A stretch of DNA of 39,551 nt from Escherichia phage C5. Both the position numbers and the translations under genes were made by a program. Within the stretch, counting starts at the first letter, position 1, and each line of letters begins with the position of its first letter. Positions 3,249 to 8,686 of this stretch are shown here, one piece after another. The stretch lies in sequence record NC_048079.1; one strand, written 5' to 3'. A model generated the notes under the pieces. It made no database searches. It saw only the letters and a program-made list of their open reading frames with translations, and was not told the origin of the DNA.

Positions 3249-5900
3249 ATGAACACGATTAACATCGCTAAGAACGACTTCTCTGACATCGAACTGGCTG
3301 CTATCCCGTTCAATACTCTGGCTGACCATTACGGTGAGCGTTTGGCTCGCGAACAGTTGGCCCTTGAGCATGAGTCTTACGAAATGGGTGAAGCACGATT
3401 CCGCAAGATGTTTGAGCGTCAACTTAAAGCTGGTGAGGTTGCGGATAACGCTGCCGCTAAGCCTCTCATTACTACCCTGCTCCCTAAGATGATTGCACGC
3501 ATCAACGACTGGTTTGAGGAAGTGAAAGCTAAGCGCGGCAAACGCCCGACAGCCTTCCAGTTCCTGCAAGAAATCAAGCCGGAAGCGGTAGCGTACATCA
3601 CCATTAAGACCACTCTGGCTTGCCTAACCAGTGCAGACAATACAACCGTTCAGGCTGTAGCAAGCGCAATCGGTCGAGCCATTGAGGATGAGGCTCGCTT
3701 CGGTCGCATCCGTGACCTTGAGGCCAAGCACTTCAAGAAAAACGTTGAGGAACAACTCAACAAGCGTGTAGGTCACGTCTACAAGAAAGCATTCATGCAG
3801 GTTGTCGAAGCGGACATGCTCTCTAAGGGTCTACTCGGTGGCGAGGCGTGGTCTTCGTGGCATAAGGAAGACTCCATTCACGTAGGGGTTCGCTGCATTG
3901 AGATGCTCATTGAGTCAACTGGAATGGTTAGCTTGCATCGTCAAAATGCTGGCGTAGTAGGTCAAGACTCTGAGACTATCGAACTCGCGCCAGAATACGC
4001 TGAGGCTATCGCAACCCGTGCAGGTGCGCTGGCTGGCATCTCTCCGATGTTCCAACCTTGCGTAGTTCCTCCTAAGCCGTGGACTGGTATTACTGGTGGC
4101 GGCTATTGGGCTAACGGTCGTCGTCCTCTGGCGCTGGTGCGCACTCACAGTAAGAAAGCACTGATGCGCTACGAAGATGTTTACATGCCTGAGGTGTACA
4201 AGGCGATTAACATTGCGCAAAACACCGCATGGAAAATCAACAAGAAAGTCCTAGCGGTCGCCAACGTAATCACCAAGTGGAAGCACTGCCCTGTAGAGGA
4301 CATCCCTGCGATTGAACGTGAAGAACTCCCGATGAAACCGGAAGACATCGACACGAATCCTGAGGCTCTCACCGCTTGGAAACGTGCTGCCGCTGCTGTG
4401 TACCGCAAGGACAAGGCTCGCAAGTCTCGCCGTATCAGCCTTGAGTTCATGCTTGAGCAAGCCAATAAGTTCGCTAACCATAAGGCCATCTGGTTCCCTT
4501 ACAACATGGACTGGCGCGGTCGTGTTTACGCTGTGTCAATGTTCAACCCGCAAGGTAACGATATGACCAAAGGTCTGCTGACACTGGCGAAAGGTAAACC
4601 AATCGGTAAGGAAGGTTACTACTGGTTGAAAATCCACGGTGCAAACTGTGCGGGTGTCGATAAGGTTCCGTTCCCTGAGCGCATCAAGTTCATTGAGGAC
4701 AACCACGAGAACATCATGGCTTGCGCTAAGTCTCCACTGGAGAACACTTGGTGGGCTGAGCAAGATTCTCCGTTCTGCTTCCTTGCGTTCTGCTTTGAGT
4801 ACGCTGGGGTACAACACCACGGCCTTAGCTACAACTGCTCTCTTCCGCTGGCGTTCGATGGGTCTTGCTCTGGTATTCAGCACTTCTCCGCGATGCTCCT
4901 TGACGAGATAGGTGGTCGTGCGGTTAACCTGCTGCCTAGTGAAACCGTTCAGGACATCTACGGGATTGTCGCTAAGAAAGTAAATGTGATTCTGCAAGAA
5001 GATGTAATCAACGGGACAGACAACGAAGTAGTTACCGTGACCGATGAGAACACGGGTGAAATCTCTGAGAAAGTCAAGCTGGGCACCAAGGCTCTGGCTG
5101 GTCAATGGCTGGCCTACGGTGTTACTCGCAGCGTGACTAAGCGTTCAGTCATGACGCTGGCTTACGGGTCCAAAGAGTTCGGCTTCCGTCAACAAGTGCT
5201 GGAAGATACCATTCAACCAGCTATTGATTCCGGTAAGGGTCTAATGTTTACTCAACCGAATCAGGCTGCTGGGTACATGGCTAAACTGATTTGGGAAGCT
5301 GTGAGCGTCACGGTGGTGGCTGCGGTTGAAGCAATGAACTGGCTTAAGTCTGCCGCTAAGCTGCTGGCTGCTGAGGTCAAAGATAAGAAGACTGGAGAGA
5401 TTCTTCGCAAGCGTTGCGCTGTGCATTGGGTAACTCCTGATGGCTTCCCTGTGTGGCAGGAATACAAGAAGCCCATTCAGACTCGCTTGAACCTGATGTT
5501 CCTCGGTCAGTTCCGCTTACAGCCAACCATTAACACTAACAAGGATAGCGAGATTGATGCACACAAACAGGAGTCCGGTATTGCCCCTAACTTTGTACAC
5601 AGCCAAGACGGTAGCCACCTACGTAAGACTGTAGTGTGGGCGCATGAGAAGTACGGAATCGAATCATTTGCGTTGATTCACGACTCCTTCGGGACAATTC
5701 CTGCTGATGCTGCCAACTTATTCAAAGCTGTGCGCGAAACTATGGTTGACACCTATGAATCCTGTGATGTACTGGCTGACTTCTACGACCAGTTCGCTGA
5801 CCAGTTGCACGAGTCTCAATTGGATAAAATGCCAGCACTTCCGGCTAAGGGTAACTTGAATCTCCAAGACATCCTTAAGTCAGACTTCGCGTTTGCGTAA
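3249..5900 (+). CDS. 1: Gene 1 single-subunit T7-type DNA-dependent RNA polymerase
   Basis: 883 aa MNTINIAKNDFSDIELAAIPFNTLADHYGERLAREQLALEHESYEMGEARFRKMF... ending ...LQDILKSDFAFA; near-identical to T7 RNAP, consistent with the 17 T7-type promoters present. Confidence 0.98.
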   Translation: MNTINIAKNDFSDIELAAIPFNTLADHYGERLAREQLALEHESYEMGEARFRKMFERQLKAGEVADNAAAKPLITTLLPKMIARINDWFEEVKAKRGKRPTAFQFLQEIKPEAVAYITIKTTLACLTSADNTTVQAVASAIGRAIEDEARFGRIRDLEAKHFKKNVEEQLNKRVGHVYKKAFMQVVEADMLSKGLLGGEAWSSWHKEDSIHVGVRCIEMLIESTGMVSLHRQNAGVVGQDSETIELAPEYAEAIATRAGALAGISPMFQPCVVPPKPWTGITGGGYWANGRRPLALVRTHSKKALMRYEDVYMPEVYKAINIAQNTAWKINKKVLAVANVITKWKHCPVEDIPAIEREELPMKPEDIDTNPEALTAWKRAAAAVYRKDKARKSRRISLEFMLEQANKFANHKAIWFPYNMDWRGRVYAVSMFNPQGNDMTKGLLTLAKGKPIGKEGYYWLKIHGANCAGVDKVPFPERIKFIEDNHENIMACAKSPLENTWWAEQDSPFCFLAFCFEYAGVQHHGLSYNCSLPLAFDGSCSGIQHFSAMLLDEIGGRAVNLLPSETVQDIYGIVAKKVNVILQEDVINGTDNEVVTVTDENTGEISEKVKLGTKALAGQWLAYGVTRSVTKRSVMTLAYGSKEFGFRQQVLEDTIQPAIDSGKGLMFTQPNQAAGYMAKLIWEAVSVTVVAAVEAMNWLKSAAKLLAAEVKDKKTGEILRKRCAVHWVTPDGFPVWQEYKKPIQTRLNLMFLGQFRLQPTINTNKDSEIDAHKQESGIAPNFVHSQDGSHLRKTVVWAHEKYGIESFALIHDSFGTIPADAANLFKAVRETMVDTYESCDVLADFYDQFADQLHESQLDKMPALPAKGNLNLQDILKSDFAFA

Positions 5901-6546: not shown

Positions 6547-7572
6547 ATGATGAACATTAAGACCAACCCATTCAAAGCCGTGTCTTTCGTAGAGTCTGCC
6601 ATTAAGAAGGCTCTGGATAACGCTGGGTATCTTATTGCTGACATTAAGTACGATGGTGTGCGTGGTAACATCTGCGTAGACAATACCGCTAACTGCTGCT
6701 GGCTCTCTCGTGTATCCAAACCGATTCCGGCACTGTCTTACCTTAATGGGTTCGACGCACGTTGGCAGCGTCTACTAAAGGATGACCGTTGCTTCTACCC
6801 TGATGGCTTCATGCTGGATTGCGAACTTATGGTCAAGGGAGTGGACTTCAACACTGGCTCCGGCCTTCTGCGGACCAAGTGGCTCAACAAGAAGAACATG
6901 CAGTTCGATATTGGCGGTCCGTATGAATCGTGGGACGTGAGCCTGAAGGGACTTCCTTTCGGTATTGACCCGAACTTACTAACAGTTAAACTCTACGCTA
7001 TCCTTCCGTACCACATTGTGGAATCTGGGGAAGACTGTGATGTCATGACGTTGCTCATGCAGGAACACGTTAAGAACATGCTGCCTCTGCTACAGGAATA
7101 CTTTCCTGAAATCGAATGGCAAGCGGCTGAGTCTTACGAGGTTTACGACATGGTAGAACTACAGCAACTGTACGAGAAGAAGCGTGAAGAAGGGCATGAG
7201 GGTCTCATTGTGAAAGACCCTATGTGCATCTATAAGCGCGGTAAGAAGTCCGGCTGGTGGAAACTTAAGCCAGAGAATGAGGCTGACGGTATCATTCAGG
7301 GTCTTGTGTGGGGAACAGAAGGTTTAGCCAATGAAGGTAAAGTAATCGGATTTGAGGTGCTTCTTGAGAGTGGTCGTGTAGTTAATGCCACAAACATCTC
7401 TCGCACCTTAATGGATGAATTTACTAGCACAGTTAACATCGAAGGCGAAACCTACTACAACGGACACGCTTGTCAGATTGCGTACATGGAGGAAACACCT
7501 GATGGCTCTCTGCGTCACCCATCGTTCGTAATGTTCCGTGGCACAGAGGACAACCCTCAAGAGAAAATGTAA
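6547..7572 (+). CDS. 1.3: Gene 1.3 ATP-dependent DNA ligase
   Basis: 341 aa; adenylation motif KYDGVRG near the N-terminus; N- and C-terminal regions match T7 ligase, with two internal segments that look divergent or shorter. Confidence 0.93.
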   Translation: MMNIKTNPFKAVSFVESAIKKALDNAGYLIADIKYDGVRGNICVDNTANCCWLSRVSKPIPALSYLNGFDARWQRLLKDDRCFYPDGFMLDCELMVKGVDFNTGSGLLRTKWLNKKNMQFDIGGPYESWDVSLKGLPFGIDPNLLTVKLYAILPYHIVESGEDCDVMTLLMQEHVKNMLPLLQEYFPEIEWQAAESYEVYDMVELQQLYEKKREEGHEGLIVKDPMCIYKRGKKSGWWKLKPENEADGIIQGLVWGTEGLANEGKVIGFEVLLESGRVVNATNISRTLMDEFTSTVNIEGETYYNGHACQIAYMEETPDGSLRHPSFVMFRGTEDNPQEKM

Positions 7573-7578
7573 TCACAC

Positions 7579-7608
7579 TGGCTCACCTTCGGGTGGGCCT
7601 TTCTGCGT
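7579..7608 (+). terminator. Early terminator TE (rho-independent)
   Basis: GC-rich hairpin ggctcaccttcgggtgggcc followed by tttctgcgttt, immediately after the ligase gene. Confidence 0.8.
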
Positions 7609-7609
7609 T

Positions 7610-7632
7610 TAATACGACTCACTAAAGGAGGT
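7610..7632 (+). promoter_or_regulatory. T7 RNAP promoter phi1.5
   Basis: taatacgactcactaaaggaggt. Confidence 0.85.
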
Positions 7633-7639
7633 ACACATC

Positions 7640-7729
7640 ATGATGTACTTCATGCCATTACTCATCGTCATCATAGGATGCCTTGCTCTCCACTGTAGCG
7701 ACGATGATATGCCAGATGGTCACGCTTAA
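7640..7729 (+). CDS. 1.5: Gene 1.5 small protein
   Basis: 29 aa MMYFMPLLIVIIGCLALHCSDDDMPDGHA. Confidence 0.7.
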   Translation: MMYFMPLLIVIIGCLALHCSDDDMPDGHA

Positions 7730-7738
7730 GGAGGCGCT

Positions 7739-7933
7739 ATGTGGCCAGCTTTATTATTCATCTTCGCTGCTTCCTCTCCGGCTGGAGGCTCAGTATCTCC
7801 GACTGTTACAGCTATTGAGATGCCAACTCTCAGGATATGCCAGTCAGTAGCAGAACAGCTTAAGGAGACACCAAAGCCGGGCAACGGATACGCTCAATAC
7901 ACTTACAAGTGCGTTGAGAAGAAGCCTAACTAA
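7739..7933 (+). CDS. Hypothetical 64-aa protein with signal-peptide-like N-terminus; no T7 counterpart recognised
   Basis: Strong RBS taaggagg 5 nt upstream of the ATG; MWPALLFIFAASSPAGGSVSPTVTAIEMPTLRICQSVAEQLKETPKPGNGYAQYTYKCVEKKPN; hydrophobic N-terminus and two Cys; stop overlaps the first bases of phi1.6. Confidence 0.7.
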   Translation: MWPALLFIFAASSPAGGSVSPTVTAIEMPTLRICQSVAEQLKETPKPGNGYAQYTYKCVEKKPN

Positions 7934-7953
7934 TACGACTCACTAAAGGAGAC
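7931..7953 (+). promoter_or_regulatory. T7 RNAP promoter phi1.6
   Basis: taatacgactcactaaaggagac. Confidence 0.85.
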
Positions 7954-7958
7954 ACTAT

Positions 7959-8219
7959 ATGTTTCGACTTCATTACAACAAAAGCATTAAGAATTTCACG
8001 GTTCGCCGTGCTGACCGTTCAATCGTATGTGCGAGCGAGCGCCGAGCTAAGTTACCTCTTATTGGTGACACAGTTCCTTTGGCACCGAGCGTCCACATCA
8101 TTATCACCCGTGGTGACTTTGAGAAAGCAATAGACAAGAAACGTCCGGTTCTTAGTGTGGCAGTGACCCGCTTCCCGTTCGTCCGTCTGTTACTCAAACG
8201 AATCAAGGAGGTGTTCTGA
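7959..8219 (+). CDS. 1.6: Gene 1.6
   Basis: 86 aa [86 protein letters not shown]. Confidence 0.85.
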
Positions 8220-8686
8220 TGACTACTTATGATGCCATGATTATCAAACTTATTGATATGAACGAAGGCAACCCAGATCATTTGTCTAACTGTTCCTTTC
8301 AATGTGCTGGAGTTCCTTGTAGTATCTGCCCAGCCAAGGACGACGATGATATGACCTTAGGTGAAATCCGAGAGATGGACCCACGTAAGTCTAAGCCGGA
8401 GAAACCAGAGGTAACTCCCACAGATGACCAACCTTCCACCGAGTCAATCGAAGGTGTCACGAAGCCATCTCATTATATGTTGTTCGACGACATTGAGGCT
8501 ATCGAAGTGATTGCCCGTTCGATGACCCGCGAGCAGTTCAAAGGGTATTGCTTCGGGAACATCCTTAAGTACCGCCTACGTGCTGGTAAGAAATCCGAAC
8601 TGGCTTACTTAGAGAAGGACATGGCGAAAGCTGGCTTCTATGGGGAACTGTACGAGAAACATAAGGATAAATGCTATGACTCTTAA
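8219..8686 (+). CDS. 1.7: Gene 1.7 nucleotide kinase (shorter N-terminus than T7 gp1.7)
   Basis: 155 aa; C-terminal region ...VTKPSHYMLFDDIEAIEVIARSMTREQFKGYCFGNILKYRLRAGKKSELAYLEKDMAKAGFYGELYEKHKDKCYDS matches T7 gp1.7; ATG overlaps the 1.6 stop (TGATG). Confidence 0.85.
   Translation: MTTYDAMIIKLIDMNEGNPDHLSNCSFQCAGVPCSICPAKDDDDMTLGEIREMDPRKSKPEKPEVTPTDDQPSTESIEGVTKPSHYMLFDDIEAIEVIARSMTREQFKGYCFGNILKYRLRAGKKSELAYLEKDMAKAGFYGELYEKHKDKCYDS

Follow-up and report, generated by a model that had tools for sequence, protein, structure and literature searches.

Here we describe a small accessory gene in the genome of Escherichia phage C5 (NC_048079.1), a complete-length T7-group genome of 39,551 nt which is called the window below. 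The gene is an open reading frame (ORF) of 64 codons, with its ATG at 7739 and its TAA at 7931-7933, situated between gene 1.5 and the promoter phi1.6. A set of homologous clusters, low ratios of non-synonymous to synonymous substitution (dN/dS) at saturated dS, and a Shine-Dalgarno sequence kept in every genomic context set it apart from a chance reading frame, and on these comparisons it is almost certainly a real gene under selection. Judging from its relatives, it would quite probably be an old, rare and often-lost accessory gene of the middle (class II) region, and not a new insertion.

T7 is the reference virulent phage, and the stretch between its ligase gene and gene 1.7 is known as a zone where small, dispensable genes of obscure role occur. 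To this zone the ORF adds a rare family under strong purifying selection, found in at least four slots across three Studiervirinae lineages. It joins the small accessory genes of the T7 class II region, and the finding is of modest interest; at 204 bp, and with a natural isogenic-like comparator that lacks it (Escherichia phage N30), the ORF is also a cheap experimental target. The elements of the locus on which the argument rests are as follows.

7739..7933, + strand: the 64-codon ORF and its stop (accessory gene), from the ORF listing, 12 homologous clusters and dN/dS of 0.05-0.3
7730..7933, + strand: the 204-bp extra segment, made up of 9 nt of ribosome-binding site and spacer, 192 nt of coding sequence and the TAA
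7728..7734, + strand: Shine-Dalgarno AAGGAGG, read from the sequence, overlapping the gene 1.5 stop and separated from the ATG by a 4-nt spacer
7640..7729, + strand: gene 1.5, a 29-aa hydrophobic microprotein with an acidic tail, MMYFMPLLIVIIGCLALHCSDDDMPDGHA (phrog_12128, E=5.8e-22; 95% DNA identity to T7 gene 1.5)
7931..7953, + strand: phi1.6, class II promoter, TAATACGACTCACTAAAGGAGAC (exact promoter match, aligned with T7 phi1.6)

Homologues and selection

A profile search of a collection of 5.8 billion proteins retrieved 12 protein clusters (at the 90% identity level) that are 43-97% identical to the window protein, all of them from T7-like (Studiervirinae) phage genomes or from contigs with T7-like gene order. 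Among family members, pairwise dN/dS calculated by the Nei-Gojobori method lies between 0.05 and 0.3, with dS often saturated, as it is when the window is compared with alleles that have 76-79% of their residues in common. Furthermore, each homologue comes with a Shine-Dalgarno sequence of its own, whatever the genomic context.

The proteins closest to that of the window are WGL32408.1 of Escherichia phage PGX1 (100% amino acid identity) and QJT70349.1 of "Enterococcus phage EFA-2" (97%), both encoded in the same slot and both annotated only as hypothetical; indeed, the gene is already in GenBank as a "hypothetical protein" for several related phages. Homologues from Ningirsuvirus and Foetvirus (JA10_014, SIB_23, NAHI_16 and ZD95_11 of phage P1723) are family members at 43-56% identity. 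They keep both cysteines and the motifs LLFI, GS..P and KPGxGY without variation, and their genes too are located in the ligase-to-gene-1.7 region. They differ in their length of 61 aa, in their MK start, which provides a basic n-region, and in their gene positions. The P1723 homologue carries the label "beta propeller domain-containing", for which no support was obtained in this analysis. The known carriers are restricted to phages of Enterobacterales (Escherichia, Klebsiella, Dickeya).

Searches by tblastn with the protein gave matches in 9 of 50,697 phage records, T7 not being among them, in line with the original prediction made from the DNA alone, which recognised no T7 protein in this product. 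The most PHROG-like member of the family, used as query at E up to 10, added no further records. No significant match was obtained in Pfam (best E=0.21), none in NCBIfam, and none among PDB sequences when a profile search was run at E up to 10. HMMER, run exhaustively over 1.84 billion representatives, returned only the family itself and P0013, a 637-aa tandem-repeat protein matched over 24 residues and judged spurious as a relative. In PHROGs there are weak matches to two unannotated families only; phrog_5579, an unannotated 52-aa profile, matches 9 of the 13 family members over residues ~18-57 with a best E of 1.1e-4, and matches the window protein itself at E=0.19 only. Pattern scans detected no homologue in 185,579 bacterial and archaeal species, each represented by one genome, and none in JGI metagenomes, and in IMG/VR they gave two loci, both of already known types. 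Literature searches found no paper on the ORF or its family, on the gene content of PGX1 or on secreted proteins of the T7 group; one paper, tangential to the present subject, links the toxicity of gp1.5 to the stringent response (PMC13483052).

Boundaries and age of the segment

In T7 (NC_001604), the alignment shows that the TAA of gene 1.5 is itself the first three bases of phi1.6, a junction which the original prediction had given correctly. In the window, the gene 1.5 stop is the TAA at 7727-7729, and the three bases that open phi1.6 are the TAA stop of the 64-codon ORF. Compared with T7 and N30, the window holds exactly 204 extra bases at 7730-7933 (or equivalently 7727-7930, as a TAA stands at both ends). 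The coordinates thus confirm the earlier description of an ORF with its own ribosome-binding site placed exactly between the gene 1.5 stop and phi1.6, with a TAA that starts the promoter; the translation of the 64-aa product is exactly as then given, and the alignment to canonical T7 bears out both the absence of the ORF there and the exactness of the boundaries.

N30 is the closest whole genome, and the first 25 kb of the window are matched there at 98.3% identity. It has the T7-type junction without the ORF, and its blastn alignment to the window stops at 7729 and restarts at 7931. Among 177 matching phage records, the full 7560-8000 segment is covered in two, PGX1 and EFA-2; the ORF is missing from T7 and from about 175 other T7-like records. 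An IMG/VR contig (L017) also holds the 204-bp segment.

This distribution bears on the explanation first proposed, a recent and precise moron-type insertion of foreign cargo into a T7 backbone. In its favour, the segment is absent from T7 and from N30, its boundaries are exact with the TAA duplicated at both ends, and the site is occupied in only 3 of the ~177 related records. Presence or absence among close relatives with exact boundaries (absent in N30 and T7; present in PGX1, EFA-2 and L017) is indeed as expected of a moron. Against it, no T7-type promoter was found in 7633-7930 and no sigma-70-like site in 7300-8250, a scan of 7300-8300 gave 0 terminator-like sites, and the stop codon runs into phi1.6. 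No flanking repeats of the segment exist beyond the TAA. The composition is indistinguishable from that of the genome (GC 49.5% against 48.8%; GC at third codon positions, or GC3, 48.4%), 47.5% of 204-bp windows being at least as GC-rich, and a foreign origin was rejected in view of this normal composition. The failure to find a homologue in the bacterial and archaeal species scanned points in the same direction, as do the same-slot alleles described below. Recent insertion is largely refuted and appears very improbable. Because the ORF has neither promoter nor terminator of its own and is composed like the genome, "moron", in the lambdoid sense of an autonomous inserted transcription unit, is the wrong category for it: of the earlier claim, the exact boundaries held, while autonomy did not, the composition proved normal and a recent arrival is improbable.

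The argument for an old gene comes from two metagenomic T7-like lineages, L010 and L015, which are collinear with the window over ~850-1000 bp at a uniform ~75% DNA identity. The collinear span runs from the 3′ end of the ligase gene through the early terminator TE, phi1.5, gene 1.5 and the ORF to the next T7-type promoter, and in L010 it continues through gene 1.6. Both lineages hold the ORF in the slot that it occupies in the window, with its TAA inside the next promoter. The same-slot alleles have 75-86% amino acid identity and saturated dS, and they occur in lineages with equally diverged flanks. Since collinear lineages at this distance carry diverged alleles in the same slot, the presence of the ORF would be old, and the word "insertion" is not sustained: the state of T7 could equally be a deletion. 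Three further slots between ligase and gene 1.7 are used in other genera and lineages. In Foetvirus P1723 the homologue takes the gene 1.4 slot, its stop lying inside the next (T3-like) promoter; in Ningirsuvirus it is located between 1.6-like and 1.7-like genes; and in the lineage L013 it follows the ligase gene directly and overlaps the next microprotein gene as ATGA.

We conclude that an old accessory gene is polymorphic here for presence and absence. The state of T7 and N30 could be a loss at least as readily as the window state a gain, possibly through deletion between the two TAAs, and the polymorphism would be kept up by recombination between the conserved 3′ end of gene 1.5 and the promoter. 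Given its rare and patchy distribution, the strong purifying selection, the restriction to Enterobacterales phages and a position amid small dispensable genes, the product may be a conditionally useful binder, whose target would be a host component conserved across Escherichia, Klebsiella and Dickeya hosts.

The N-terminus and the question of export

The family alignment, with 13 sequences in three clades, has invariant residues at M1, L5, L6, F7, I8, S12, G17, S18 and P21 in the N-terminal third, and at C34, the K46-P47-G48-x-G50-Y51 loop, Y54 and C58 in the remainder. The parts of the protein under discussion are the following.

7739..7801, + strand: codons 1-21, MWPALLFIFAASSPAGGSVSP, hydrophobic N-terminal segment and Gly/Ser/Pro linker (alignment, hydropathy, AlphaFold2)
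7838..7840, + strand: Cys34 codon, invariant, in the first turn of the predicted helix (alignments, predicted secondary structure)
7874..7891, + strand: codons 46-51, KPGxGY loop, with K46, P47, G48, G50 and Y51 invariant
7910..7912, + strand: Cys58 codon, invariant, in predicted strand beta3, with variable flanking columns (alignments, predicted secondary structure)

Codons 1-21 would encode either a short Sec-type signal peptide or the strand beta1 and loop of a folded domain. Under the explanation that we favour, the 61-64-aa product would be exported via the Sec pathway by a short N-terminal n-h-c segment, cleaved around Gly17 to Val19. The remaining mini-protein of ~45 residues, with an extended segment, a helix, the KPGxGY loop and another extended segment, would be stapled in the periplasm by a Cys34-Cys58 disulfide and would bind an envelope component conserved among Enterobacterales. 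Its role would be conditionally useful, e.g., a block to secondary infection or protection from a host activity associated with the envelope. That the protein is exported with a disulfide is a tentative view, held at slightly less than an even chance; the same degree of confidence applies to the explanation overall, export being the step that separates it from its rivals. Any specific envelope function is unlikely at best.

Most members begin with MK + ALLFILMASI + GxGSA(A)P, which follows the classical n-h-c layout, and the window h-region, ALLFIFAAS, falls within what is expected of a signal peptide (~7-15 residues near the N-terminus). The hydrophobic character first noted for this segment is indeed pronounced: over the first 25 residues the 9-residue Kyte-Doolittle mean reaches 2.48, which ranks 4th among the 50 window ORFs, just behind gp1.5, gp19.5 and the spanin gp18.5. 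The maximum 19-residue mean, 1.25, is too low for a membrane anchor and more in keeping with a signal peptide. An acceptable -3/-1 site (A-G-G, G-G-S or G-S-A) is present at least once in every lineage within alignment columns 15-19, though it is not the same one throughout; in the window the G-S-V site has Val at -1, and an invariant proline comes after it. The protein has exactly two cysteines, both invariant across the family while neighbouring columns vary freely, and in the model the pair resembles what a structural disulfide would look like. Cys34 is at the N-terminus of the helix and Cys58 at the C-terminus of beta3, and by the modelled geometry the two would lie at the same end of the beta-alpha-beta crossover. 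Export is further favoured by the hydrophobic character of either face of beta1 and by the membrane microproteins encoded next to the gene, described below. Two variants of membrane attachment were rejected, a lipoprotein for want of a lipobox cysteine in the N-terminus, and a transmembrane anchor since the hydrophobic run is too short.

Several observations weigh against export. AlphaFold2 predicts for the full-length protein a beta-beta-alpha-beta domain with a mean pLDDT of 85.5, in which residues 4-11 are placed in the sheet as the central strand beta1, the N-terminal block having a pLDDT of ~90; a cleaved protein would lack this strand, as beta1 is the central one of the predicted fold. 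In the AlphaFold2 model of residues 19-64, the mature part is not independently folded: the helix is kept and no strands are paired, so the predicted fold needs the N-terminus. This truncated model still matches split beta-alpha-beta folds with the central strand missing. An independent model of the JA10 homologue in BFVD shows the same full-length fold (TM 0.81-0.85 over 62 columns). Moreover, signal peptides usually diverge faster than the mature part; here the N-terminal 21 columns are the best conserved (9 of 21 invariant, or 43%, against 8 of 43, or 19%, in the rest), and their dN is no higher than that of the rest of the protein, being lower for distant pairs. The window clade starts with MWPA and has no Lys or Arg in the n-region, whereas the Ningirsuvirus and Foetvirus alleles have their MK. 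The invariant proline follows the best AxA-like site, the acceptable -3/-1 sites shift between lineages, and the h-region is short (9-10 residues). Finally, the cytoplasm is where most of the small class II proteins characterised in T7 act. The term "secreted-type", applied to the product at the outset, agrees with the sequence pattern and the cysteine pair, and is opposed by structure prediction and the pattern of conservation.

Much of this evidence would be accommodated by a cytoplasmic, full-length mini-domain of 64 aa with the order beta1-beta2-alpha-beta3 (a split beta-alpha-beta, ferredoxin-like half), whose N-terminus is the buried central strand. Such a protein would probably dimerise via the otherwise exposed face of its sheet, and, in the manner of other small T7 class II proteins, it would bind and inhibit a host protein, for host takeover or anti-defence, perhaps via the KPGxGY loop. 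We regard this as a serious possibility, although one with the balance of probability against it. Besides the pLDDT values of the full-length model, the loss of all strand pairing on truncation and the agreement of the BFVD model, it is favoured by the invariance of LLFI, S12, G17, S18 and P21, with an N-terminal dN equal to or below that of the remainder, and by the want of a basic n-region residue in the window clade. The fold is, in addition, common to many uncharacterised phage proteins of 55-70 aa (TM 0.6-0.75 in BFVD), and a patchy distribution is typical of conditionally useful counter-defence genes. What this explanation accounts for less well is a run of 9-10 uniformly hydrophobic residues at the extreme N-terminus followed by Gly/Ser/Ala/Pro, which is a pattern recognised by Sec, and the presence of two invariant cysteines amid variable columns, hard to explain in the reducing cytoplasm without a metal site; no other conserved ligands occur in the alignment. 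Furthermore, beta2 and beta3 are amphipathic but both faces of beta1 are hydrophobic, so that a monomer would expose large hydrophobic residues, and the alignment behind the model consists of the same 13 sequences from three clades only. If the protein is cytoplasmic, it would be one more candidate inhibitor of a host factor or defence system.

Fold searches with the full and the truncated models gave generic ferredoxin-like matches only, the closest folds listed being small split beta-alpha-beta or ferredoxin-like domains: PurS (2zw2/2yx5), AcrIC8 (8g9s) and MzrA (4pwu). Neither sequence similarity nor specific structural similarity to AcrIC8 or to other Acr families was found for the ORF product. 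The KPGxGY loop is the best-conserved motif of the C-terminal half and, on its conservation, a candidate interaction surface.

One particular form of the export explanation we consider decidedly unlikely. A soluble, Sec-exported, disulfide-stapled periplasmic effector, the first in a T7-group virulent phage, would capture a beta-strand of an envelope protein by strand augmentation. It would do so with a groove left open in the mature form between two strands that lack a partner, where AlphaFold2 places the signal peptide. If true, this would represent a new kind of superinfection-exclusion or envelope-defence countermeasure.

A further explanation, also rather improbable, is that the protein stays uncleaved and associated with the inner membrane, retaining its N-terminus and forming a small membrane module with gp1.5-like microproteins; the invariant Pro21 would, with no greater probability, block signal peptidase. 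The proline does follow the SAA/SVS site, and the high N-terminal conservation would then be functional. Membrane microproteins like gp1.5, with a transmembrane segment and an acidic tail, adjoin the gene in three of four arrangements (the window class, Foetvirus P1723 and L013), and in L013 the two reading frames share the ATGA overlap. On the other hand, the hydrophobic run is no longer than 9-12 residues, and the 19-residue maximum of 1.25 falls short of the 1.6 usual for a membrane span; gp1.5 is present in nearly all T7-like phages that lack the ORF, which leaves no co-occurrence signal; and in Ningirsuvirus gene 1.6 separates the ORF from gp1.5.

As a separate observation, gp1.5-like microproteins are encoded, besides 7640-7729 of the window, at 2203-2289 of L004 and at 4183-4284 and 4373-4486 of L013; in each, an acidic tail such as DDDMPDGHA, DNDDDLTPP or TDDGDLL comes after a hydrophobic segment. 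The window gp1.5 has the most hydrophobic N-terminus of the genome and a lipobox-like IIGC.

T4 Sp (spackle) and T5 Llp are periplasmic or lipoprotein superinfection-exclusion factors of virulent phages, small exported proteins that act in the envelope of the infected cell. They serve only as an analogy for the favoured, exported form of the ORF product: there is no similarity of sequence or fold and no Pfam or PHROG match between them and this product, and T5 Llp is a lipoprotein, whereas the ORF product has no lipobox. With T7 gp1.4, gp1.5 and gp1.6, the ORF shares neighbourhood, size class, dispensable or variable presence and transcription by T7 RNA polymerase. The hydrophobic N-termini of gp1.4 and gp1.5 are like that of the ORF product, but these are membrane microproteins without a globular part; none of the three has sequence similarity to it, and the PHROGs of gp1.5 and gp1.6 are distinct from its weak matches. 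By analogy, an exported product would be an unusual periplasmic effector for the T7 group and a candidate for superinfection exclusion or envelope-level counter-defence.

Transcription and neighbouring features

The window contains 15 T7-type promoter matches. The elements around the ORF that complete the locus are listed here.

6547-7572: ligase gene 1.3
7576..7606, + strand: TE, terminator hairpin followed by a T-run, for host RNA polymerase (base-for-base alignment with the T7 TE region, annotated at T7 7588)
7610..7632, + strand: phi1.5, class II T7 RNA polymerase promoter, TAATACGACTCACTAAAGGAGGT (exact match to the T7 promoter core, aligned with T7 phi1.5)
7959..8219, + strand: gene 1.6, 86 aa, downstream neighbour (phrog_1777, E=6.8e-42; 99% DNA identity to T7 gene 1.6)

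The early (class I) unit ends at TE. Host RNA polymerase would not reach the ORF, which is downstream of this terminator, and, by what T7 biology implies, the ORF is a class II (middle) gene and not an early one. The original assignment to the early region has to be corrected in this respect, the gene being downstream of both TE and phi1.5. The nearest promoter for gene 1.5 and the ORF is phi1.5, and no terminator is found between phi1.5 (7610) and the ORF. Transcription would be carried out by the phage RNA polymerase from phi1.5 and upstream class II promoters. Translation would start from the strong Shine-Dalgarno sequence of the ORF, whose overlap with the gene 1.5 stop would allow near-coupling to gene 1.5.

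A point missed by the original prediction is the absence of gene 1.4 (51 aa; T7 7608-7763), which is missing at window 7573-7632 and also in N30, PGX1 and EFA-2. Because of this absence, TE abuts phi1.5 in the window and in these three genomes. In L017, the ligase-to-gene-1.5 slot is filled by a 156-aa HNH-type ORF (L017 1914-2384). EFA-2 (L009, MT350293.1), whose T7-like genome of the Studiervirinae has T7-type promoters and matches the window at 96-97% identity in this region, has Enterococcus faecalis as its stated host, which looks doubtful.

Several repeated elements were noted in the locus. phi1.5 (7610-7630) and phi1.6 (7931-7951) constitute a perfect 21-bp direct repeat, 321 bp apart, flanking gene 1.5 and the ORF; recombination between the copies would remove both genes together. 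The motif CTTAAGGAG(G/A)C(G/A)C occurs in three copies: the first (7725-7737) is the ribosome-binding site of the ORF, the second (7859-7871), inside the ORF, encodes the conserved QLKET and is strongly Shine-Dalgarno-like and in frame with no start codon nearby, and the third (7943-7955) is in the transcribed leader of phi1.6. The direct repeats GCTTAAGGAG (7724, 7858) and GATATGCCAG (7706, 7834) were judged likely to be chance or ribosome-binding-site-like matches. An ORF on the minus strand (7726-7884) and another in the +2 frame (7683-7850) were dropped, since T7-group transcription is one-stranded and selection acts on the +1 frame. An Rfam search of 7400-8100 gave no RNA family.

Downstream of the ORF, gp1.6 matches Pfam PF06726, "BC10, bladder cancer-related protein", over the full-length model (E=1e-22, 80.5 bits), and the same label is precomputed for its homologues in L010 and L013. 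The family name is odd for a T7 protein, and PF06726 may include phage-derived sequences. Gene 1.7 (nucleotide kinase, DUF3310; window 8219-8686) encodes 155 aa, fewer than in N30 and L017 (180-182 aa) or in T7 (196 aa). Its 5′ part (8222-8325) is unalignable with N30 and constitutes another mosaic patch just 3′ of the ORF.

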